Part shown: piece after piece, positions 1 to 51,851 of the stretch
How positions within the stretch are numbered: position 1 is the stretch's first letter
Layout: each line of letters opens with the position of its first letter
Virus record (IMG/VR): IMGVR_UViG_2693429637_000011
Reading direction: 5' to 3' (one strand)
DNA: 64,000 nt
DNA from: a virus
Taxonomy: Duplodnaviria; Heunggongvirae; Uroviricota; Caudoviricetes
Position numbers and translations under genes: made by a program
The notes under the pieces: model-generated
Seen by the model: the letters and a program-made list of their open reading frames with translations, nothing else
Told to the model about the DNA's origin: nothing
Database searches by the model: none

Positions 1-1107
1 ACTAAATCAGTAAGTTGGCAGCATCACCCGACCCGTGATGGTGTTCGTGGAAAAGAAAAACTGGATGTCCCCATCAAGTTTTTATGGTGCTACGCCAGTA
101 ACACATTGATCAATCAACATGGCGACATCAATCACACCCATGAGGTGCTTCAGGATGACAGCAAGTGCGAGATGATTGTTGGCATTGACCACTTCATGAC
201 GGCCTCGGCTAAGTATTGCGATATCCTGTTGCCCGACCTGATGCCAACAGAGCAAGAAGACCTTATCTCTCATGAATCTGCAGGGAATATGGGCTATGTG
301 ATCCTCGCCCAACCCGCAACCTCAGCAAAATTTGAACGCAAACCCATCTACTGGATGCTGAGTGAAGTCGCCAAACGCTTAGGACCAGACGTTTATCAAA
401 CCTTTACTGAAGGTCGCAGTCAGCATGAATGGATCAAATATCTCCATGCGAAAACGAAGGAACGTAACCCTGAGATGCCCGACTACGAGGAGATGAAAAC
501 GACCGGGATCTTTAAGAAAAAATGCCCGGAAGAACACTACGTCGCTTTCCGCGCATTCCGTGAAGATCCACAGGCAAACCCGTTGAAAACACCTTCGGGG
601 AAAATCGAAATTTATTCTGAACGACTGGCGAAGATTGCGGATACCTGGGAATTGAAAAAAGATGAAGTTATTCATCCCCTTCCTGCGTATACCCCAGGTT
701 TTGATGGCTGGGACGATCCCCTGCGGAAAACCTATCCACTGCAGTTAACGGGCTTCCATTACAAAGCGCGTACCCACTCCAGCTACGGCAATATTGATGT
801 GTTACAGCAGGCCTGCCCACAAGAGGTGTGGATCAACCCCATTGATGCTCAGGCACGCGGTATCCGTCATGGCGATACCGTGCGGGTATTTAACAATAAT
901 GGAGAAATGCTGATTGCCGCAAAAGTGACTCCGCGTATTCTGCCTGGCGTTACCGCCATCGGGCAAGGTGCTTGGCTTAAAGCGGATATGTTTGGTGACC
1001 GGGTCGATCACGGCGGCAGTATCAATATTCTGACCTCTCACCGCCCTTCACCGCTGGCAAAGGGAAACCCGTCGCACAGCAATCTTGTCCAGATCGAAAA
1101 GGTTTAA
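1..1107 (+). CDS. ynfF: Molybdopterin oxidoreductase catalytic subunit (DmsA/YnfE/YnfF family), 3' portion; 5' end lies left of the window
   Basis: Reading frame open from base 1; C-terminus ...PSPLAKGNPSHSNLVQIEKV is typical of DMSO-reductase A subunits; a DmsB-like gene starts 10 bp downstream. Confidence 0.8.
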   Translation, partial: TKSVSWQHHPTRDGVRGKEKLDVPIKFLWCYASNTLINQHGDINHTHEVLQDDSKCEMIVGIDHFMTASAKYCDILLPDLMPTEQEDLISHESAGNMGYVILAQPATSAKFERKPIYWMLSEVAKRLGPDVYQTFTEGRSQHEWIKYLHAKTKERNPEMPDYEEMKTTGIFKKKCPEEHYVAFRAFREDPQANPLKTPSGKIEIYSERLAKIADTWELKKDEVIHPLPAYTPGFDGWDDPLRKTYPLQLTGFHYKARTHSSYGNIDVLQQACPQEVWINPIDAQARGIRHGDTVRVFNNNGEMLIAAKVTPRILPGVTAIGQGAWLKADMFGDRVDHGGSINILTSHRPSPLAKGNPSHSNLVQIEKV

Positions 1108-1117
1108 GGAGTAGCCC

Positions 1118-1231
1118 GTGACCACACAATATGGATTTTTTATCGATTCCAGCCGCTGTACTGGCTGTAAAACCTGCGAACTGGCGTGCAAAGATTTTAA
1201 AGTTGGTTACGTATCGTTTAAAATCAATTAG
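1118..1231 (+). pseudogene. ynfG: 5' fragment of 4Fe-4S subunit gene (DmsB/YnfG family), truncated after ~28 native codons by prophage insertion
   Basis: GTG start after RBS ggag; MTTQYGFFIDSSRCTGCKTCELACKDFK matches YnfG/DmsB N-terminus, then diverges at ~1202 and stops at 1229-1231. Confidence 0.75.
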
Positions 1232-1646
1232 ATAGCCCGTCATTTCTGCGCTCACACGTCCCAACATTGAAAAACATGCAAAGCTTTGTAAGCCGATGCA
1301 AAGCTTTGTGTGTCTCACTTTTGTCCCAATACCAATCCGAATCCACCCTTTGTCATCATTGAGAAATGGCAAGGAAGAAAAGGATGTTACTGCACGATTT
1401 GACAAATCCGCCAGAGCTATCGCATACTGATCGCACTGAACAAATAAGCGGTCTCCGCACCCGATAGCTTTGCGGCTTTTTTATGCCTGCAATTTGGCAT
1501 AGTTACATCCGTACAAAGGTCGGGTGGAGAGGCGTAATACAACACCCGCAAGGGGAATATGCCCAGAGCTTCTTATTTGGCTCAGTTGACACCCGACCGC
1601 CAGCTACTAACTGGCGGTTATAAACTAAACAAATAAGGAGGTCATC

Positions 1647-2285
1647 ATGACCAGTCAACTCATCCCCGTATTCAACGGCACTATCGACAACGAAACAGCC
1701 CTACTCTGCAATGCCCGCGATCTGCATGCTTTTTTAGGCGTGAAAAAAGTGTTTGCGGCATGGATTACAAATCGCATTTCAGAATACGAATTCATTGAAA
1801 ATCAAGACTATATTTTGCTTTCCAATTTGGGAAAGCAAACATCTGGTAGAGGCGGTCACAACCGCAAGGACTACCACCTCACCCTCGACACAGCCAAAGA
1901 GCTTGCGATGGTTGAACGTAACGAAAAAGGCCGCCAGATACGCCGCTACTTCATCGAGTGCGAAAAGAAACTTCGCAACATTCAGCCAGTACAAGCAGAA
2001 CCACAGCCGCAATTCACAGCCGAGGAAATCATCCTCCTTTGCTACATGCAGCTCTGGATGGAAAAAGCCCAGGACCTCAGCAAACACCTGTATCCCATTA
2101 TGAAAGAGCTGAACTCCTCATACACGAACAAGCTGTATGACATTGCGTTTGAGACCATCTACATGGTGACGAAGAACAGAGACGCGCTACTGAGGGAGGT
2201 AACACGTCTCGACATGTCAAGTTCCGTTATCCAGCGGGCCATGCCAATGCTGAAAAGCCTGCGGGCAAGACAATTCGAGTTTTAA
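1647..2285 (+). CDS. Antirepressor-like protein (AntA-type N-domain fused to shared C-terminal module)
   Basis: RBS aaggagg 8 bp upstream of ATG; C-terminal 93 aa nearly identical to ORF 48591..49262 and homologous to C-terminus of 2540..3172. Confidence 0.65.
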   Translation: MTSQLIPVFNGTIDNETALLCNARDLHAFLGVKKVFAAWITNRISEYEFIENQDYILLSNLGKQTSGRGGHNRKDYHLTLDTAKELAMVERNEKGRQIRRYFIECEKKLRNIQPVQAEPQPQFTAEEIILLCYMQLWMEKAQDLSKHLYPIMKELNSSYTNKLYDIAFETIYMVTKNRDALLREVTRLDMSSSVIQRAMPMLKSLRARQFEF

Positions 2286-2539
2286 GGCCAGATTTGACAA
2301 ATCCGCATTAACGGGGATATATTCCGCTCCATGGTGCTGAACACACCTTCGAAAGCGGAAACCGCGCCCGTCAGTCATGCGGATTTTTTATGTCCATTTT
2401 TCAGATATGGTCGGGTAGCGCGTATACCGAAAAACAGCCGCAAGGCTAAGGATGCGGGCCGAACTTTCGACGGTGTTCAAGTACCCGACCGCCCTGCTGA
2501 ACACGGGGTGATCTGAACAAATCGAAAGGACATAAAACT

Positions 2540-3172
2540 ATGAGCACTCAACTTGTATTCCACAATGTTCAATTCCAGACCGTTCAACGAGATGGTCTAC
2601 TGTGGTTGTCTGCCCCCCAAATAGCCAGCGCGTTACAATATGCAGATCAAAGCTCGGTAACACGCATCTATGCCCGTCACGCAGATGAATTCACAAACGG
2701 TATGACAGCCTCGGTCAAATTGACCGATCCTAAAGGGGACAAGCAAGAGACTCGCATCTTCTCATTACGCGGCGCTCACCTAATAGCGATGTTTGCTCGA
2801 ACTCCAATAGCAAAAGAGTTTCGTCGCTGGGTATTGGATATTCTGGACCGTGAAGCTGAAAAAAGCGCTATACCGCCACAACCTCATATTCAGCCTCAAT
2901 TCACAGCAGAAGACATCATCCTGCTCTGCTACGTTCAACTCTGGATGGAAAAAGCACAACAACTCAGTAAACAGCTATACCCCGTCATGAGAGAACTGAA
3001 CTCTGATTACTATGGAAAGCTGTTTGATCTGGCCTACGAAACTCGTCATATAACCAACCGGACTCGCGACACATTGCTCCGCGAAGCAGCAAAACTTGAT
3101 CCCGCCAACTATACGGTGCACAGGGCCAGAAGTATGCTGGCGCAACTAAGAGCAAGACAATTTGAATTCTGA
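2540..3172 (+). CDS. Bro-N domain antirepressor-like protein with the same C-terminal module
   Basis: N-terminal Bro-N-like sequence (LVFHNVQFQTVQRDGLLWLSAPQIASAL...); C-terminal ...QPQFTAEDIILLCYVQLWMEKAQ...RARQFEF homologous to the other two ant paralogs. Confidence 0.65.
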   Translation: MSTQLVFHNVQFQTVQRDGLLWLSAPQIASALQYADQSSVTRIYARHADEFTNGMTASVKLTDPKGDKQETRIFSLRGAHLIAMFARTPIAKEFRRWVLDILDREAEKSAIPPQPHIQPQFTAEDIILLCYVQLWMEKAQQLSKQLYPVMRELNSDYYGKLFDLAYETRHITNRTRDTLLREAAKLDPANYTVHRARSMLAQLRARQFEF

Positions 3173-3219
3173 AACCAAAGGAGCTTCGGCTCCTTTTTTC
3201 ATGCCTGAAGGAAAGGAAA

Positions 3220-3441
3220 ATGGCAGATATCATCGACAATGCCGCTGAAATCGAAGAATTGCAGCGCAATCTCTCCCTGCAAAAATACAAATCCGATAGT
3301 AATGCCCCATCTGCTACTCATTGTTGCGAGTGTGGCGATCCGATAGATGAGCGGCGACGCCTGGCTGTTCGTGGATGCCGAGCTTGCGCCAGTTGCCAGC
3401 AGGATATTGAACTTATCAACAAACAGAGAGGTGTGAAGTGA
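3220..3441 (+). CDS. TraR/DksA-family C4 zinc-finger protein
   Basis: 73 aa, CxxC...CxxC (CCECGDPIDERRRLAVRGCRACASC) typical of phage TraR-like proteins. Confidence 0.65.
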   Translation: MADIIDNAAEIEELQRNLSLQKYKSDSNAPSATHCCECGDPIDERRRLAVRGCRACASCQQDIELINKQRGVK

Positions 3442-39224: not shown

Positions 39225-41135
39225 TTATGCGGCTGCTCCAGCTTTGTTTGCTTTAACTTCCACCGTATCAATAAGTACAGGGTAGGTTTCTGCACTACCT
39301 GTAATATCCGTAATGACAAACCTGTTGAGTCCATTAGCAGTATTGGCCCATTTCACCAGGTCAAACGCCTGTCCATCCACACCATCGAGCACCGGAGTAA
39401 CATTAATGCTGTTACTGCCCTTAAATTTAAATGCAAGCGTATGCCAGTCATGGTCGAATGCGCCAAACGTGCCAAGTTCTTTTTGTTGATTAACTGTATG
39501 ATGGTATGCAACATTAATACTGGCTTTATCTGTCTGGACAAAGAAAGAACTCAGATGGCCTTCACCACCCTCACCCGGCCATTCCGCTATTCGCCAGTAC
39601 AAACCAAAGGCATACTTGTTTCTGGTTGTCTCAAGATTGACGTTTTCGGGGATTTTAAACCGGACAGCAATTTCTCCGCCTTTTTCCAGTAAAAGTTTTG
39701 CCTTGTCTGCAGCAATATCACAGTACATTGACCAGGATTTCGCGCTGTTATTTTTCTCAATTCGCAGAGCTTTATTGCCGCTGTCATCAACCAGTGTGCG
39801 CCTGCCATACACACCGTCCCAGCCATAGGGTTTCAGCTGATTGTCTGTAGCTTTTTTGGCATCGTAAAAAATTACAGACTCTGAGGTGGTAACCGGTCTG
39901 TCTGGAACAACCACCCCGGCAGTACCATTAACAAACGCAGAAGACTTACCCGCGCAGCTCAGAATCGCAGTTGCCAGACGGTCGGAAATAATCCCACGGC
40001 GAGCCCATGAACTGAAATGGCTCGCCCTGTCCTGTGACGTCCAGGTGGCTGAGCTGTCACGCCATTTCGAACCGTAATAACCGATACCCGGAATGTCCGG
40101 GTCTTCTTCCGGTTTGTTCGTCGGCACATTCACCCCGTTCTCATCGGTCATGAACGGTACGAAATGGATATTCTTTTCCGTTTTATTTTTATAGCTGCCG
40201 TACACCGTCTGGTACGTGGATTCGTTCTTCTGCTTCCAGAAATACGTCGTGTCCCCGCATATCCAGGGAACACCGCCAGCAGAGCCACCGACGCACTGGC
40301 CTGCCATATCCGCCAGGTCTGCACGGAATTTATCAACCAGCGCACCAAACTGTGCGGCATGATTTGCCGGCGTACCGCCAAAATCAAATTCCCCCTGCAT
40401 CCACACCACGGCAAACAGCACATTTTTCGGGTTCTTCTCCAGTGCCGCTTTTGTTCGACCGATAAGGTCCTTATACAGCGGCTTGTCCACACCCCAGCGG
40501 GTTGAATTCTCCGAGGCGCCACTCGCGTCACTGTATGTGCCATCAGCTCCGGTGGTGAACGCTGAACCACCACGACAGCACGGAACCAGCAGAATGCCCG
40601 CATTCGCCGGTATAAACGGCAGCAGTTTTTTGGCGATATGCAGCCCCTGCCCCACGGTTCCGTACTGCCCCTTTGACAGGTCCGCTTTCGGATGGTTAAG
40701 ACGGCTCATGTCCTGCACATCATGCAGACAATGGTCCGCCGGAATGATGTCGTTATATTTGCATGCTGCACCGCCCGGTGTCACCGTACTGCGACGCGCT
40801 AACTGTTTAATACGTGGATCAGGGCTGTCGAATGTATCCGGTAATGGCAGTCCCTCACCGTATGACATACCATTGGACTGACCAGCAAGCGCGATCACAT
40901 AGTAATATTCTGGCGCAACAGAAGGCGCTGAGGTCGTCGGACGGTTGCCTGGCTCCTCTGGTGATGAGATGCTCCCCTCACTCACAACTGGCTGGATGAA
41001 CTCCGCACCATAACCAGCTGTCGAAATCAGCGCACTACCATAAGGCTGCCACCCTTCCTTCAGTTTTTGAGTTATTCGTTTCGCAAGGTCTGACGGCGAC
41101 GCCGCCCTGACAACATCATAGTGTTTAAATGCCAT
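39225..41135 (-). CDS. nanS-p: Sialate O-acetylesterase, prophage NanS-p-like (copy 1)
   Basis: 636 aa; GQSN catalytic motif of the SASA/SGNH esterase family; conserved N-terminal MAFKHYDVVRAASPSDLAK...KEGWQP domain. Confidence 0.7.
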   Translation of the reverse strand: MAFKHYDVVRAASPSDLAKRITQKLKEGWQPYGSALISTAGYGAEFIQPVVSEGSISSPEEPGNRPTTSAPSVAPEYYYVIALAGQSNGMSYGEGLPLPDTFDSPDPRIKQLARRSTVTPGGAACKYNDIIPADHCLHDVQDMSRLNHPKADLSKGQYGTVGQGLHIAKKLLPFIPANAGILLVPCCRGGSAFTTGADGTYSDASGASENSTRWGVDKPLYKDLIGRTKAALEKNPKNVLFAVVWMQGEFDFGGTPANHAAQFGALVDKFRADLADMAGQCVGGSAGGVPWICGDTTYFWKQKNESTYQTVYGSYKNKTEKNIHFVPFMTDENGVNVPTNKPEEDPDIPGIGYYGSKWRDSSATWTSQDRASHFSSWARRGIISDRLATAILSCAGKSSAFVNGTAGVVVPDRPVTTSESVIFYDAKKATDNQLKPYGWDGVYGRRTLVDDSGNKALRIEKNNSAKSWSMYCDIAADKAKLLLEKGGEIAVRFKIPENVNLETTRNKYAFGLYWRIAEWPGEGGEGHLSSFFVQTDKASINVAYHHTVNQQKELGTFGAFDHDWHTLAFKFKGSNSINVTPVLDGVDGQAFDLVKWANTANGLNRFVITDITGSAETYPVLIDTVEVKANKAGAAA

Positions 41136-41557
41136 GAATCCTCCCGGCCGGGATAATATTGTGAGTAAAATAAGGAGCGGGCTGAAGTCCGGAAGTTACA
41201 GGACAATGGCAGAAGGGAGACTACAGCCCGCAATTCGAAAAAGGTCGCGCAGTTGCGCAGAGTGATTACTATGGGGTATTATTCGCCAGCTGAAATATTA
41301 CTTCACGTTTCATTGTTCATTCCTTGCCGCCCGCGTCTCCCAGCGCGGGCTTTTTTGTCCATAAGAAAGCCCCTCCGGAGAGGGGCTGGAGAGTGGCGCT
41401 ATGTGCCATTGCATGGTGCCGGGTGCCTCCCGGTGAGTTCAGCCCGGTGCCACTAAACCCGCGTCATTCTCGTTTTGATAATCAGAGATTATACCGTCAC
41501 CAGTCGCCCCTCCGCTCAGGGGGATTCACCATGCAGTTTTTTCTAACAAATTCTCAT
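41050..41557. repeat. Repeat A copy 1 (nanS-p 5' end plus ~400-bp upstream element)
   Basis: Near-identical to 45250..45742 and, in part, 46000..46300; contains hairpin cccgcg-N8-cgcggg plus T-run and a perfect TATAAT on the minus strand. Confidence 0.6.
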
Positions 41558-42596
41558 CAGCGCGGGTTTGATTACCGTATCCCTTCATTGGTCGGTTATT
41601 CATGTCCGTCAGCAACTCCCGAAGGCGTGCATTCAGCGCCCTGAGCGTGTGGAAGGTTTCATTACGGATGCGGGCAAGAAGCCATCGCTCGACGATGAGG
41701 ACGCCGTTTTCTGCTTTTGGTTTATCTTTAGGTTTGCGCGGGCGGGCCGGGATAATAACCGTGCCATAGTGCTCAGCCAGCGCCTGATAACTGTCGTTGA
41801 TGACAGGCTCATAGCGATCGGCTTTTTTCACTGCGCTTCTGAGGTTATCGGGGATGAGCAGCTTCGGTACGCCGCCCAGGAAGGTCAGGCAACGGCTGTG
41901 GGCATTTAACCATGACATCATGTCCTGACCTTCGCACGCTTCAACATAGGTATAGTTGGACGCCCCCATTACAGCCACGAAGATTGCCACGCGGCGTATC
42001 TCTCCGGTGTCCGGATTAATAACAGGGACCGTAGGACCACAGAAGTCGATAAAGAGCTTTTCGCCAGCACGATGCTCCTGTCGCATGGAGAGGCGTCGCG
42101 TTTTTTTCCACTTCCGGTAGCAACGGCAGAAGTGTGAGTATCCCATCGCTTTGTCACCCGCCTGTGCCTTGTATTCCATCCACAACAGTTGGCGCGTCAC
42201 GCCAGGTTTTCTCATTTCCGTATCGAAGTACAGCATGTCAGGCATAACAAGCTCTGACGCAGAGGTGTCTTTGGGCGGGAAAATGAGTTTCTCCAGCGTG
42301 TCATGGGATATATCCGCAGGTAATGGCCATGACAGAGAAGAGGCTTTGAAGCGGGCAAGAACCTCAAAAACGGTTGAGGCGCTGATGTGTAACGTCAGTC
42401 CGATACAACGGTTAGTCAGCTTCTTATCGAACTTGAGCTGAAGGATCTTAAAACAAGTTTCCATAGTGCTCCTGGATTTTCTCTTTTTGGACATTGACGT
42501 CTCCACTGGTTTAAACACGGCAATGGAGACTGTGGTGAAAAGAGTTAATTCCCGGAGTGACTGGCGAATTCCAATCAATGATCGGAAGTATGCCAA
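41526..42596 (-). CDS. IstA-like DDE transposase, probably truncated
   Basis: HTH N-terminus and FIDFCGPTV...VAIFVAV...YTYVE core; last codons read into repeat A. Confidence 0.5.
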   Translation of the reverse strand: MAYFRSLIGIRQSLRELTLFTTVSIAVFKPVETSMSKKRKSRSTMETCFKILQLKFDKKLTNRCIGLTLHISASTVFEVLARFKASSLSWPLPADISHDTLEKLIFPPKDTSASELVMPDMLYFDTEMRKPGVTRQLLWMEYKAQAGDKAMGYSHFCRCYRKWKKTRRLSMRQEHRAGEKLFIDFCGPTVPVINPDTGEIRRVAIFVAVMGASNYTYVEACEGQDMMSWLNAHSRCLTFLGGVPKLLIPDNLRSAVKKADRYEPVINDSYQALAEHYGTVIIPARPRKPKDKPKAENGVLIVERWLLARIRNETFHTLRALNARLRELLTDMNNRPMKGYGNQTRADENLLEKTAW

Positions 42597-43485: not shown

Positions 43486-45339
43486 TTATGATGATGCCGG
43501 TGCATTTATCTCCAGCACCAGACTTTCTATCTCAACGCCATACGCTGCATTTTTGGTAATATCCGTCAGCGTCAGCGCATTCAGCCCCAGTGTCAGACTG
43601 TCTTTTATGACCTGGAATGCCGGGCCAGCCACTCCATTCAGTTTCGGAGTAACCGTGGCACTGCCGGCGGTGAACACCAGCTCCAGCGTCAGCCAGTCGT
43701 TACTGTAATTCCCGAACTCGCCCAACTTTGTGTTTCCTGCTTTCTTGTGATGCATCAGATTCAGTTTGCCGTCTGTGGTCTGGGTGAAGAACGACATCAG
43801 GAACGGGTTACCAGTCCCGGTCATCGCCACGACGTCAGGTAACGCTACATCGGTATACAGATAAATTCCCAGACCGAACTGGTTGTTGGTCAGTGCGCCT
43901 GACAGTCGAAACTTACAGCTCAGTCTGCCACCCCGTGTCAGCAGGGAGACTGCGTCATCCACCGGGCGCGTCAGGGACCAGGCTTTATTGCTCTGCTTGG
44001 TGATCTTAAATACACCATCTGACAACTGAACTCCGCCATTCTTAATGCTCCAGCCCTGCGCAGCAGCGTCTCCGGCTGTCGGCAACAGGGAGATTGTGCG
44101 TATGGATGCATCTTCAGACGGCCCCGATGGCGTGTCGCCGCCGGGCGAGGGTTTGATTTCCGGTGCCTTACCACTAATGAAGGCTAAGGTGCGACCGGCT
44201 ACGTTCAGAATAGCAGTTGCCATACGATCGGGAATAATGCCACGACGCGCCCATGAGCTGAAATGCGTCGGGCGATTTGATGATACCCAGTTTTTGTTCG
44301 TTCGGGATGCCGAACCGTAATAACCAGACCCGGCAATATCAGGATCTTCTGACGGGTTGTTTGTCGGTGTATTAACTCCGCTACCATCGGTCATAAAGGG
44401 AACAAAATAAATCTGCTGGGATTCTTTACCTTTATATGCACCATATACCACTTCATATTGCGTACCGTGTTCTTGTTTCCACGCGTATGTCGTGTCGCCA
44501 CAAATCCAGGGGACTGATGCCGGACTTCCACCGTGACACTGCGCCGCCAGCCCGGCAAGGTCAGCACGGAACTGCTGTACCATTGCAAGAAATGCTGCTG
44601 GCTGCTGGGCGTAACTGGCATTCGTCATATCGAATTCCCCCTGCATCCAGCATATCGCCAGCAAAACGTTTTTCGGGTTTTTCTGCAATGCTGCCTTCGT
44701 GCGGAAAAGCAGATCCTGATATAACGGCTTACCCACTCCCCAGCGAGCCGAATCCTGACTGGCCCCCGTGGACTCGCTGAATGTCCCCTCCGTGCCCTGG
44801 GTGAATGCCGAACCACCACGACAGCATGGTACCAGCAGGATCCCCGCATTATTAGGGATATACGGAAGCAGTTTTTTGGCAATATGTAAGCCCTGTCCGA
44901 CACAGCCGTACTGCCCTTTGCTCAGGTCAGCCCGGGGATGGTTAATCGTACTCATATCCTGAACATCATGCAGACAATGGTCAGCAGGAATGATGTCGTT
45001 AAATACGCATACTTCACCACCGGGAGTCACTGTGTTACGACGGGCCAGTTGCTTAATGCGCGGATGGGGCGCATCGTATGAATCCGGAAGCGGAAGACCT
45101 TCACCGTAAGCCATGGCATTGGATTGCCCGGCCAGTACGATGACGTAGTACCACTCCGGCTCAGTTGCACCACTGACGACCACATCACCTTCTGCTGCAA
45201 TCGCCTGCATCAGGGTATAAGGGGTTATGGCCACCGGACTACCAAACGGCTGCCAGCCCTCCTTCAGTTTTTGTGTCAGTCGTTTCGCAAGGTCTGACGG
45301 CGATGCCGCCCTGACCACGTCATAGTGTTTAAATGCCAT
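43486..45339 (-). CDS. nanS-p: Sialate O-acetylesterase, NanS-p-like (copy 2, diverged paralog)
   Basis: 617 aa; GQSN motif; N-terminus identical to copy 1, remainder diverged. Confidence 0.7.
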   Translation of the reverse strand: MAFKHYDVVRAASPSDLAKRLTQKLKEGWQPFGSPVAITPYTLMQAIAAEGDVVVSGATEPEWYYVIVLAGQSNAMAYGEGLPLPDSYDAPHPRIKQLARRNTVTPGGEVCVFNDIIPADHCLHDVQDMSTINHPRADLSKGQYGCVGQGLHIAKKLLPYIPNNAGILLVPCCRGGSAFTQGTEGTFSESTGASQDSARWGVGKPLYQDLLFRTKAALQKNPKNVLLAICWMQGEFDMTNASYAQQPAAFLAMVQQFRADLAGLAAQCHGGSPASVPWICGDTTYAWKQEHGTQYEVVYGAYKGKESQQIYFVPFMTDGSGVNTPTNNPSEDPDIAGSGYYGSASRTNKNWVSSNRPTHFSSWARRGIIPDRMATAILNVAGRTLAFISGKAPEIKPSPGGDTPSGPSEDASIRTISLLPTAGDAAAQGWSIKNGGVQLSDGVFKITKQSNKAWSLTRPVDDAVSLLTRGGRLSCKFRLSGALTNNQFGLGIYLYTDVALPDVVAMTGTGNPFLMSFFTQTTDGKLNLMHHKKAGNTKLGEFGNYSNDWLTLELVFTAGSATVTPKLNGVAGPAFQVIKDSLTLGLNALTLTDITKNAAYGVEIESLVLEINAPASS

Positions 45340-45742
45340 GAATCCTCCCGGCCGGGATAATATTGTGAGTAAAATAAGGAGCGGGCTGAAGTCCGGAAGT
45401 TACAGGACAATGGCAGAAGAGAGACGACAGCCCGCAATTCGAAAAAGACCGCGCAGTTGCGCAGAGTGATTACTATGGGGTATTATTCGCCAGCTGAAAT
45501 ATTACTTCACGTTTTATTGTTTATTCCTTGCCGCCCGCGTCTCCCAGCGCGGGCTTTTTTTGCCCACAAGAAAACCCCTCCGGAGAGGGGCTAAAGCCGC
45601 GTATCTGTATCATCATGCACATGGTGCCGGGTGCCTCCCGGTGAGTTCAGCCCGGTGCCACTAAACCCGCGTCATTCTCGTTTTGATAATCAGAGATTAT
45701 ACCGTCACCAGTCGCCCCTCCGCTCAGGGGGATTCACCATGC
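45250..45742. repeat. Repeat A copy 2
   Basis: Near-identical to 41050..41534, with small indels. Confidence 0.6.
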
Positions 45743-45837
45743 GAAATTTTTTTAACAAATGCCCAGTCTGACAGGCAACTGTCAACTTACTGAATTGTGA
45801 GCAACATAGCATTTAACGGGGAACCTGTTTTCTGCAG

Positions 45838-45999: not shown

Positions 46000-46300
46000 G
46001 CAGAGTGATTACTATGGGGTATTATTCGCCAGCTGAAATATTACTTCACGTTTCATTGTTCATTCCTTGCCGCCCGCGTCTCCCAGCGCGGGCTTTTTTG
46101 TCCATAAGAAAGCCCCTCCGGAGAGGGGCTGGAGAGTGGCGCTATGTGCCATTGCATGGTGCCGGGTGCCTCCCGGTGAGTTCAGCCCGGTGCCACTAAA
46201 CCCGCGTCATTCTCGTTTTGATAATCAGAGATTATACCGTCACCAGTCGCCCCTCCGCTCAGGGGGATTCACCATGCAGTTTTTTCTAACAAATTCTCAT
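46000..46300. repeat. Repeat A copy 3 (partial, lacks nanS-p)
   Basis: Matches the upstream portion of copies 1 and 2. Confidence 0.6.
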
Positions 46301-46362
46301 CCGGGCAGACAACATTCAACTGACTTAATTGTGAGGTATGTAACATTCCCGTTGAACGGATA

Positions 46363-49262: not shown

Positions 49263-49606
49263 AATGACGCCCTCGAGTGGTTTCTAAACTATCACCACCG
49301 TCAGGTTCCTAATCATCGGGTGGCGAGACGTACAGGGTTAGGAACTACCGGGAAACCAACCGGCGAGCTTTTCAGCTCCCCTATACGCCCCACCATAATT
49401 CAGATGTGCGTGTGCATACGACAATAAAAAACACGCTCGCGGCGTGTCTCTGTCGCGGTTTCTATCCGGGGTTCCTAATCCCGACGCCAGATTTTGCTGG
49501 CGTGCGATGAATATAATCCCGGATACGCGACGTTGTCAAACTGATGGCATTGCAGATCCCTACGCAATGTAACACTATGTGTTATACATTAATAACGGAA
49601 CAAAAA

Positions 49607-51230: not shown

Positions 51231-51386
51231 TTACTCCTCAGGTTCGTAAGCTGTGAAGACAGTGACCTCCGTCTGACCGGTTCGGATTCGTACCTCGCAG
51301 AGGTCTTTCCTCGTTACCAGTGCCGTCACAATGACGGTAATACAGATGACGATCAGGGCGACTAACATCGCCTTTTGCTGCTTCAT
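51231..51386 (-). CDS. hok: Hok/Gef-family type I toxin (within overlapping mok frame 51231..51443)
   Basis: MKQQKAMLVALIVICITVIVTALVTRKDLCEVRIRTGQTEVTVFTAYEPEE nearly identical to HokD-type toxins; RBS aaggag. Confidence 0.8.
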   Translation of the reverse strand: MKQQKAMLVALIVICITVIVTALVTRKDLCEVRIRTGQTEVTVFTAYEPEE

Positions 51387-51851
51387 AGCCTGCTTCTCCT
51401 TGCCTTTCGGCGCGTAAGAGGCTAACCTACATGTGTCTAGCATGAAATTGGCCTCAGATTAATGTTAGGCGTCTTGCAGGACGCGTAATGTTAACTGGGG
51501 CTTTTCTCTGTCTGCCTTACGGTGGCATGCCCGAGGCAGACAGCCTCAAGCACCCGCAGCAATTCTACTTAACTCTCGCTTTACCGCAAACCGTTTTTAC
51601 CCGATATGGGAATTCCCATATCGTAATGAATTCAGTTCCCTAGTCGATCCATCAAAAACACAACCAGGCAGTAAACGCCCACAACAGCAATAACAGCCAG
51701 CGCACCTTCCATTGCCAGTGATATATCATCCGACATATTCCCTCCTTTGGTGTTAATCCCGGCGAACGTTTTTACCCCCACCGACAAATAACATATACTA
51801 AAAAATCAATAGCTATAGCAACGCCTGTAATTGCAAAGGCTTCAAGCCAGA

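Follow-up and report, generated by a model that had tools for sequence, protein, structure and literature searches.

Two antirepressor genes, ant1 and ant2, lie in tandem within the 64,000-nucleotide (nt) stretch of DNA of the Caudoviricetes record IMGVR_UViG_2693429637_000011, which is called the window here at its full length, and each of them is preceded by a structured leader that is the subject of this study. The ant1 gene (1647-2285, plus strand, ATG at 1647) encodes an antirepressor with an AntA N-terminal domain and a P22_AR_C C-terminal domain, and ant2 (2540-3172, plus strand, ATG at 2540) encodes one in which a Bro-N N-terminal domain is joined to P22_AR_C. Window positions 1200-3300 are 100% identical to Escherichia coli strain 23CRST047 (NZ_AP045820.1). 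According to the annotation of that genome, a lambdoid prophage similar to Shiga toxin (Stx) phages sits inside ynfG, with its integrase at the far end, and spans nearly all of the remaining window beyond 1201; the tandem genes are located at the prophage end adjoining the attachment site. Of 5,426 complete E. coli genomes, 382 carry the first leader, among them O157:H7 and O104:H4. Close relatives of the leader-plus-ant region are found in Stx-converting phages, and Stx2 II and PA4 are examples of Stx phages that share the leader.

The two leaders extend over 1396-1646 (module 1) and 2291-2539 (module 2). A previous reading of the same DNA, referred to below as the original prediction, had described before both genes a 16-nt motif, a hairpin with a T-run and a ~85-nt element closed by a stem, and all three are present at both. 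The motif, the 16-mer GATTTGACAAATCCGC, occurs in exactly two copies (1396-1411 and 2291-2306), with none elsewhere on that strand; it is followed in each module by a weak hairpin with a T-run and then by the ~85-nt RNA. The RNA element does lie upstream of the ribosome-binding site, but not at the proposed ~50 nt, since the elements end 33-45 nt before the Shine-Dalgarno sequence or the ATG.

Family and structure of the ~85-nt RNAs

In a scan covering all Rfam families, a check that had been proposed earlier, both elements were assigned to the sRNA-Xcc1 family (RF02221) above its gathering score of 53 bits. Copy 1 at 1518-1602 (plus strand) scored 69.1 bits (match 1518-1606), and copy 2 at 2409-2494 (plus strand) scored 67.5 bits (match 2409-2498). 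The RNA after which the family is named was seen as a discrete, stable species of 88 nt on Northern blots of Xanthomonas campestris 8004 (PMC2996969). No other family, with the covariance models of C4, c4-a1b1 and isrK among them, gave a match to the tandem leaders (1250-2600), even at E ≤ 10; the same search recovered C4 at 49316-49400 of the window and in phage P1. Rfam places sRNA-Xcc1 outside the C4 clan (CL00128).

Each element folds on its own into a closing stem and two hairpins, with z-scores of −4.4 for copy 1 and −2.7 for copy 2. The closing stem of copy 1 pairs GGTCGGGTG (1518-1526) with CACCCGACC (1590-1598) and is followed by the tail GCCA (1599-1602), and that of copy 2 pairs GGTCGGGTA (2409-2417) with TACCCGACC (2482-2490) and is followed by GCCC. 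The consensus of these 9-base-pair (bp) stems is GGTCGGGT(G/A)...(C/T)ACCCGACC with a GCC(A/C) tail. An internal CCGCAAGG is present in each element, and hairpin 1 of copy 1 contains AAUACAA and a GCAA tetraloop; in the family consensus, this hairpin has a CCC/GGG stem with a GNRA cap. The loop of hairpin 2, designated b′, reads CTTATTTG (1572-1579) in copy 1 and CTTTCGA (2464-2470) in copy 2, and the 3′ junction, designated a′, reads TCAGTTG (1582-1588) and TGTTCA (2474-2479), respectively. Both copies begin with GGT, as is found at the cleavage site of the P1/P7 c4 RNA (PMC5320573).

Relatives were gathered by means of the conserved hairpin-1 core, which gave 120 loci on viral contigs and 120 loci in bacterial genomes of several phyla. 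The search pattern placed no constraint on the closing stem, on hairpin 2 or on the flanks. Fourteen of 15 sampled relatives exceed the Rfam threshold for sRNA-Xcc1. When entire elements or leaders were aligned with MAFFT, the 5′ strand and the a1 hairpin were put in the wrong place, and the elements were trimmed to the stem before pairs were counted. The covariation of the long-range stem, another check suggested earlier, is strong in the 60 distinct trimmed elements: 87.4% of the cells are standard-paired, compared with 31-54% after a shift of the partners by 1-3 columns, and compensatory double changes are found in 15 of 20 pairs. The covariation score of 0.48, versus at most 0.14, was reached by none of 500 shuffles. 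As a separate observation, one viral contig (L038) carries an RT-14 RNA (RF02921, 49 bits, barely over threshold) at 2666-2812, ~1.2 kb upstream of its Xcc1 element.

Complementarity of the RNAs to their flanks

The loop and the junction of each RNA are complementary to sequences on both of its sides, designated a1 and b1 upstream and a2 and b2 downstream. In module 1, the upstream targets (1435-1448, plus strand) are a1, ACTGA at 1435-1439, and b1, CAAATAAG at 1441-1448. The downstream targets (1596-1641, plus strand) consist of a hairpin at 1596-1618 with a2, AACTG at 1609-1613, and of b2, CAAATAAG at 1630-1637, which overlaps the Shine-Dalgarno sequence of ant1 (AAGGAGG, 1635-1641). The sequences of b1 and b2 are identical and the loop CTTATTTG is their exact complement, and the junction TCAGTTG complements ACTGA upstream and AACTG downstream.

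The upstream targets of module 2 (2333-2355, plus strand) comprise a GGTG/CACC hairpin at 2333-2347, the loop of which displays a1, TGAACA at 2338-2343, and b1, TTCGAAAG at 2348-2355, with an extended pairing over 2343-2355. On the downstream side (2492-2530, plus strand), the loop of a hairpin at 2492-2508 displays a2, TGAACA at 2498-2503, a second TGAACA is located at 2514-2519, and b2, TCGAAAG at 2522-2528, overlaps the Shine-Dalgarno sequence of ant2 (AAGGA, 2526-2530). The composite TGAACA..TCGAAAG, complementary to the loop CTTTCGA plus the junction TGTTCA, is confined to module 2 (2338-2355 and 2498/2514-2528), where it gives 4 matches, counting the RNA itself on the other strand, versus 0.08 expected. 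Neither tandem module has an open reading frame (ORF) between the RNA and ant through which an icd-type coupling could pass, and b2 overlaps the Shine-Dalgarno sequences of ant1 and ant2 themselves.

A third antirepressor gene, ant3 (49262-48591, minus strand), lies in the nin region and encodes ORF6N joined to P22_AR_C. Its leader had been described as different from the other two, with a terminator and a repeated motif, and this was confirmed: the module (49263-49539, minus strand) is of the classical type and matches isrK, c4-a1b1 and C4. It consists of a promoter (TTGACA 49539-49534, TATATT 49515-49510), an isrK/c4-a1b1 leader (49516-49426) and a C4 RNA (49400-49316). Two copies of ATTAGGAACC serve as a1 (49479-49470) and a2 (49313-49304), and AGAAACC is present as b1 (49463-49457) and b2 (49285-49279), all on the minus strand, so that the a/b logic is the same as in the tandem modules.

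When the three RNAs were compared with the targets of all three modules in a 3 × 3 matrix, matches of 6-8 nt at b and 5-8 nt at a were found within modules, versus at most 5 nt at b and at most 6 nt at a between modules. Every RNA matches its own module best, and the b specificities are distinct in all pairings. The sole overlap concerns a′ of RNA 2 (TGTTCA, 2474-2479), which complements a 6-nt TGAACA in leader 1 (CTGAACAAATAAG, 1437-1442), a longer match than the 5-nt a match of module 1 itself. As far as the sequences go, the two tandem modules could thus engage in partial cross-talk through the a site, but not through b, where they differ.

Covariation of the targets and gene context in relatives

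The same relation was examined in the relatives by taking the longest exact complement of the RNA loop or junction in its own flanks or in foreign flanks, with Wilcoxon tests. RNAduplex energies over the whole hairpin-2 region were too noisy from the G+C-rich stems and were discarded in favour of this exact-complement measure. For the 86 distinct viral elements, own exceeds foreign at each contact: 6.4 versus 4.4 for the loop and 6.3 versus 4.8 for the junction with the downstream flank, and 6.4 versus 4.4 for the loop and 6.5 versus 4.7 for the junction with the upstream flank (p from 6e-15 to 2e-13). An independent replication, for which 90 distinct elements were taken from bacterial genomes that belong to several phyla, gave, in the same contact order, own values of 5.7, 5.7, 6.8 and 7.3 and foreign values of 4.2, 4.5, 4.4 and 4.9 (p from 6e-10 to 1e-16). 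For the upstream contacts of the two sets, p was 1e-14 to 1e-16. The 176 distinct elements of both sets carry 68 distinct b2 and 75 distinct b1 strings, which correspond to about 70 specificities, and a precedes b in a ratio of 129:1 upstream and 84:5 downstream. On phage contigs, a loop target of at least 6 nt is present in 57 of 74 loci, and 53 of these 57 end 7-12 nt before the start codon, at the 5′ edge of the Shine-Dalgarno sequence. The RNA-mediated control of antirepressors that the original prediction had raised is therefore upheld to the extent that a known small-RNA family is present, whose loop and junction complement the ribosome-binding region of the gene and covary with it in relatives.

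Phage Nil2 (AJ413274, L001; 493-678 and 1623-1706) provides another specificity and a mixed arrangement. Its antA is preceded by isrK and C4 and its antB by sRNA-Xcc1, for which the loop CTACTTG has CAAGTAG on both sides and the junction TTTTGAG has CTCAAAA in two hairpin loops. From this tandem, C4-type and Xcc1-type modules appear to be interchangeable.

The genes 3′ of Xcc1 elements are mostly of the antirepressor type. Domain matches in the 81 downstream proteins of the viral set are KilA-N (19), Bro-N (13), Rha (10), AntA (9), P22_AR_N (8) and ORF6N (6), 65 in total; among 88 proteins of the bacterial set, there are 36 such matches (21 Bro-N, 6 Rha, 4 P22_AR_N, 3 ORF6N and 2 KilA-N) and one SymE match. 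Small downstream proteins lacking antirepressor domains gave no Pfam match.

These neighbours bear on the published view of the family. The sRNA-Xcc1 RNA has been described as an integron-borne, trans-acting small RNA controlled by HrpG/HrpX, with predicted virulence or even plant targets, and its presence in front of symE and of an ORF6N gene has already been remarked upon, with no mechanism being proposed. It could accordingly be a general regulator of unlinked host or virulence genes, as put forward for Xanthomonas and Xylella, to which the adjacency of ant is incidental. HrpG/HrpX control and the many predicted targets in the literature on the founding member (PMC2996969; Chen 2011) point in this direction, as does the existence of members without a2/b2. 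However, the loop and junction match flanks within ~100 nt on either side in the 176 distinct elements, with ~70 specificities and in a fixed order, the adjacent genes are consistently antirepressor-type, and the published targets are computational predictions only. We therefore give this explanation hardly any credence.

In six Xanthomonas loci with elements of the founding-member type (L124, L151, L173, L177, L189 and L197), a promoter, an a1 hairpin, a terminator and a b1 that covaries with the loop (for example, GCTATGAG/CTCATAGC and GCTACGTG/CACGTAGC) are present, and a2/b2 were not detected near the downstream gene. This gene is SymE-like in L197 and encodes an uncharacterised protein of ~89 amino acids (aa) in the other five. 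Since a1/b1 covary where a2/b2 are lacking, it could be deduced that the leader contact is selected for its own sake.

Promoters and promoter-proximal leaders

Each 16-mer opens a predicted sigma-70 promoter. Promoter 1 (1396-1428, plus strand) has a −35 box TTGACA (1399-1404), an 18-nt spacer and a −10 box CATACT (1423-1428), with a predicted start at ~1435, and promoter 2 (2291-2323, plus strand) has TTGACA (2294-2299), an 18-nt spacer and TATATT (2318-2323), with a predicted start at ~2331. They are the best two sigma-70 matches of the region (10/12 and 11/12, respectively), and the Nil2 stretch homologous to promoter 2 bears the annotation 'promoter by homology'. Among 131 leaders of relatives, 71 have a sigma-70-like promoter (at least 9/12) in the 75 nt that precede a1, compared with 3 of 112 control regions, and the −10 box in relatives mostly ends 10-16 nt upstream of a1.

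Two candidates for control of these promoters were rejected. LexA control was dropped after inspection by eye, as the string closest to a LexA box at promoter 1 (CTGC-N8-ACAA) deviates at two core positions and no such string was seen at promoter 2; the palindrome GATTTGaCAAATC, tried as an operator, was found at the two promoters only, is missing outside the E. coli group and could be assigned to no repressor, and it was retained only as part of the −35 region. The promoter of module 3 (49539-49510) resembles that of module 2 (2294-2323) in the string TTTGACAA..GGGAT(T)ATATTC. This suggests, at the sequence level, that the C4-type module 3 and the Xcc1-type module 2 have a common promoter and leader ancestry despite their differing RNA bodies.

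The weak hairpin with its T-run belongs to a separate promoter-proximal leader that also carries the upstream, decoy copies of the targets. In module 1 (1448-1482, plus strand), CCGC (1455-1458) can pair either with GCGG at 1448-1451 or with GCGG at 1472-1475, the latter followed by T6 (1477-1482); in module 2 (2355-2389, plus strand), CCGC (2362-2365) can pair with GCGG at 2355-2358 or at 2379-2382, followed by T6 (2384-2389). These hairpins are terminator-like, with stems of merely 4-5 bp and 13-nt loops, and they are unlisted in a simple terminator scan because the stems are too weak. The two leaders of the window and the Nil2 antB leader share a conserved backbone and differ in a few short segments.

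The terminator-type stem covaries in 43 related leaders (CCGC/GCGG, CCAAC/GTTGG, ATCAC/GTGAT and CCCACC/GGTGGG). The order 3′ of b1 in relatives is AGCGG, the covarying hairpin with a CCCGTCA(G)-like loop, a T-run and then RYGYC, a motif matched by no Rfam model. In at least 103 of 116 leaders, b1 is immediately followed by CGG, which could pair with the CCG of the terminator loop to form a pseudoknot.

Partition-function modelling gave the 5′ GCGG/CCGC hairpin, which starts at the last G of b1, a probability of 0.69 in module 1 and 0.90 in module 2. When a1/b1 were blocked in the model, the terminator pairing CCGC/GCGG rose from 0.05 to 0.80 in module 1 and from 0.05 to 0.49 in module 2, although these are tiny stems and the U-run of the unblocked leader also has a different small hairpin directly next to it. 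Across the family, the mean modelled terminator probability rose from 0.52 to 0.70 upon blocking, with 44 leaders going up, 11 going down and 61 unchanged.

It is conceivable from such features that the leader acts purely in cis, either riboswitch-like or through protein-dependent antitermination, with the ~85-nt domain sensing a signal and choosing between the upstream terminator and the downstream ribosome-binding site in the absence of any RNA acting in trans. The terminator-like hairpin with its T-run, the predicted competition among GCGG, CCGC and GCGG, and the strong conservation of the hairpin 1 internal loop (AAUACAA..GNRA) in the Rfam consensus would fit such a leader. However, the terminator lies upstream of the structured domain, which is thus transcribed only after the termination decision, and no cis-regulatory (riboswitch-type) Rfam family matches the tandem leaders. 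Moreover, those segments of the RNA that vary do so in concert with its two flanks, a hallmark of antisense RNAs and not of ligand sensors. Purely cis-acting control is thus very improbable in our estimation, and the antitermination or riboswitch element considered at the outset is not sustained, the structured part having the anatomy of a stand-alone c4-type antisense RNA.

Comparison with known systems

The closest likeness is to the immI region of phages P1 and P7. The c4 RNA of these phages is matured by RNase P, which cleaves at a GGW motif, and the b′ of c4 occludes a ribosome-binding site (PMC5320573, PMC11143913). The P1 record annotates, in order, promoters, a1, b1, c4 RNA, a2, b2 and icd; a1/b1 lie ~70-90 nt before the c4 RNA, a2 follows this RNA at a distance of 4 nt and the end of b2 is 11 nt away from the start codon, and the a′ and b′ of c4 are the 3′ junction (UGUCAA) and the hairpin-2 loop (CACUAAC), respectively. 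Both the order and the spacing are shared by P1/P7 (C4 RF01695, c4-a1b1 RF03163) and the window modules, from the promoter through a1, b1, a terminator-like string with a U-run and an ~80-nt RNA to a2, b2 and the gene. Even the leader strings are similar by eye, GCGG..CCGC..GCGG-UAUUUUU-GUGUCC in P1 (locus L243, 3276-3316) and GCGG..CCGC..GCGG-AUUUUUU-AUGUCC in the window. In both cases, b2 ends ~10 nt before the start codon, the RNA begins with GGU and has a CC tail, the regulated gene is an antirepressor, and the specificity resides in the a/b sequences, comparable to the heteroimmunity of P1 and P7.

There are also differences. The P1 c4 RNA has a 17-bp closing stem, whereas the window RNAs have one of 9 bp and a long hairpin 1 with an AAUACAA internal loop and a GNRA cap. 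P1 immI contains icd, whereas the window modules lack an icd-like upstream ORF and have b2 on the Shine-Dalgarno sequence of ant itself; control therefore need not involve translational coupling or Rho. A repressor operator comparable to Oc4 of P1 was not identified at the window promoters.

In Gifsy-1, a short terminated IsrK RNA and a downstream C4-region RNA control the antirepressor AnrP (PMC4825925). The isrK-STnc1160/orf45-anrP locus shares with the tandem modules a short promoter-proximal RNA that stops at an intrinsic terminator with partial read-through, and beyond it a region of c4-type RNA and the gene of an antirepressor, and its leader and downstream RNA are likewise complementary (PMC4825925). 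The Gifsy-1 arrangement (isrK RF01394 plus C4) is identical to that before ant3 of the window and antA of Nil2, whereas the tandem modules lack the first isrK hairpin and an orf45 equivalent and have Xcc1 in place of C4.

The CI RNA of satellite phage P4 (seqA/seqC) is a processed, tRNA-like small RNA derived from the leader of the operon that it controls, with complementary sites upstream and downstream, and it has been cited as a structural relative of IsrK/C4 (PMC4825925). It acts by premature transcription termination, which is a model-based possibility for the window leaders, where blocking a1/b1 in silico shifts the predicted folds toward the terminator pairing; it differs in that it regulates replication genes and not ant. 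In the immI region of P22 (sar, Mnt, Arc), a small RNA limits antirepressor synthesis and the Ant proteins share P22_AR_C, but sar is a cis-antisense RNA that is transcribed from the other strand across the ribosome-binding site of ant, whereas the window RNA is on the same strand, upstream of its target. Finally, sRNA-Xcc1 of X. campestris belongs to the same covariance-model family (RF02221), and the window RNAs are similar in length to the mapped RNA (PMC2996969). The Xanthomonas copies share the promoter, the a1-b1 leader, the terminator and the covariation of b1 with the loop, but they lie upstream of symE-like or small uncharacterised genes and their a2/b2 are undetected.

Proposed mechanism

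Collectively, we consider it likely that each leader is a self-contained antisense-RNA module of the P1 immI (c4) type, which uses an sRNA-Xcc1 RNA instead of a C4 RNA and in which the processed RNA represses translation of Ant. Transcription would start at the module's own promoter (TTGACA-18-CATACT/TATATT) and first produce a short leader containing a1, b1 and the weak hairpin with its U-run. Transcripts that read through would contain the ~85-nt Xcc1 RNA, which, by analogy to c4, would be released through RNase P cleavage at its 5′ GGU and accumulate. The free RNA could then pair in trans with the ant mRNA, the junction a′ with a2 and the hairpin-2 loop b′ with b2. As b2 overlaps the Shine-Dalgarno sequence, Ant would remain untranslated in the lysogen or from an incoming phage of the same specificity. 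The pairing with a1/b1 would be a second, more widely conserved contact that probably feeds back on read-through of the terminator in a P4 CI-like manner; alternatively, the short leader RNA may titrate the antisense RNA, as IsrK would. We infer processing, trans action, translational repression and the effect on termination from the systems compared above.

In this scheme, the a/b sequences would set the specificity. Because modules 1, 2 and 3 carry a/b sequences that do not match one another, the prophage is predicted from its sequence to gate three antirepressors, each with a different N-terminal domain, by means of three specificities that are for the most part separate.

The roles of the two RNAs could also be reversed. 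In an IsrK-type positive control, the short terminated leader (a1-b1-terminator) would act in trans and the Xcc1 region would mainly be a cis fold that keeps the read-through mRNA inactive; the leader RNA would pair with a′/b′ and open ant for translation. Such control was shown experimentally at the homologous isrK/C4-region/anrP locus of Gifsy-1 (PMC4825925), the contact of a1/b1 with a′/b′ is the most widely conserved one in the family, even where a2/b2 are absent, and when the leaders are folded at full length, the minimum-free-energy structures show the loop region of Xcc1 paired in cis with the region of the ribosome-binding site. What speaks for repression by a free RNA is that the founding Xcc1 RNA accumulates as the discrete 88-nt species (PMC2996969) and that c4 acts in trans once processed. 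Furthermore, the long covarying closing stem, often with an N-CC tail, marks a stand-alone processed RNA, and the leader hairpins in the window are weak. We regard IsrK-type control as unlikely to be the principal mode, although it is compatible with the antisense-repression mechanism and does not exclude it.

Several points weigh against antisense repression by a c4-type RNA. The homology of the sRNA-Xcc1 elements to c4 is remote at best, and the likeness may be convergent. The hairpin-1 core was fixed by the search pattern, so that its conservation in the alignments is by construction, and the N-CC tail follows the stem in just 101 of the 176 elements. The complementary stretches are short (5-8 nt), with a1 and a2 of module 1 being only 5 nt, and b2 of module 2, at 7 nt, is weaker than its upstream partner (12/13). 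About half of the bacterial-genome members have a1/b1 but no a2/b2 detectable within 100 nt, including the Xanthomonas symE-type cassettes of the founding member, and occlusion of the Shine-Dalgarno sequence is therefore not universal in the family. In addition, the p-values given above count related loci as independent; more robust evidence comes from the size of the effects and from how many different specificities there are. Lastly, no evidence of expression, processing or repression was found in the literature for either copy or for E. coli homologs: a study of outer-membrane vesicles lists the family without an assay, a paper on Hfq cross-linking, ligation and sequencing of hybrids (Hfq-CLASH) in enterohaemorrhagic E. 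coli is silent on antirepressors, and a paper on ant of Phi24B maps no RNA.

Other features of the prophage

The ynfF gene and the 5′ end of ynfG occupy window positions 1-1201. About 70 nt inside the prophage end, ATGCAAAGCTTTGT occurs twice within 1274-1313 as direct copies (1276-1289 and 1296-1309); each copy contains the perfect palindrome CAAAGCTTTG, and the two copies jointly form a 17-bp hairpin. This hairpin may be an arm site for integrase or integration host factor (IHF), or a terminator that protects the prophage against transcripts reading through from ynfEFG. Directly 3′ of ant2, a strong hairpin with a T-run, AAAGGAGCTTCGGCTCCTTTTTT, is located at 3176-3200 and is followed by a gene for a TraR/DksA-type zinc-finger protein of 73 aa (3220-3441); a nearly identical hairpin is found 3′ of ant3 (~48585-48562).

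Further in, the arrangement of the window differs by ~4.7 kb from that of NZ_AP045820.1, which is consistent with a duplicated late region. This region contains an imperfect duplication of ~4.2-4.8 kb that holds two ORFs of ~620-636 aa (39225-41135 and 43486-45339), and inside it STnc100 (RF02076) has three full-length matches of 161-165 bits on the minus strand (41357-41562, 45562-45771 and 46100-46305). A SASA-family (nanS-p-like) esterase is annotated downstream of Q in the reference genome, which is the position of stx in Stx phages. A sok antitoxin RNA (RF01794, 116.9 bits; 51381-51555, minus strand) adjoins a Hok/Gef toxin gene within the prophage, and a second Hok/Gef gene is annotated elsewhere in it.

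Conclusions

The mechanism proposed here is of a known kind, as represented by P1/P7 c4, Gifsy-1 IsrK and P4 CI, and the RNA is of a known Rfam family; what is new is the structural variant. The advance is thus one of assignment and scope and not of principle. No link of sRNA-Xcc1 to c4-type control or to its adjacent gene was found in the literature that could be searched. A wider statement can be made only tentatively, as we lean slightly toward doubting it in full: the c4-type 'immunity' RNAs might include a second structural class that spans phyla, namely sRNA-Xcc1, which would then not be a Xanthomonas virulence RNA. Its universally conserved contact would be the one with a1/b1 of its own leader, beside an intrinsic terminator, so that the leader would serve as a P4-like, RNA-sensing attenuator on top of Shine-Dalgarno occlusion, and prophages, including those of the E. 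coli Stx-phage lineage, might stack mostly separate Xcc1 and C4 modules that independently gate several antirepressors with different N-terminal domains.

The assignment provides a testable function for sRNA-Xcc1, a family annotated in many genomes and treated in the searchable literature as a virulence-linked, trans-acting small RNA with predicted targets only. Antirepressors determine whether a prophage stays silent, and the induction of Stx-converting phages drives the release of Shiga toxin. If a cognate antisense RNA does hold off each ant, then this RNA, its processing and its turnover would offer a handle on prophage induction and on the cross-talk of co-resident prophages, and the a/b sequences would represent immunity groups that can be read directly from sequence.

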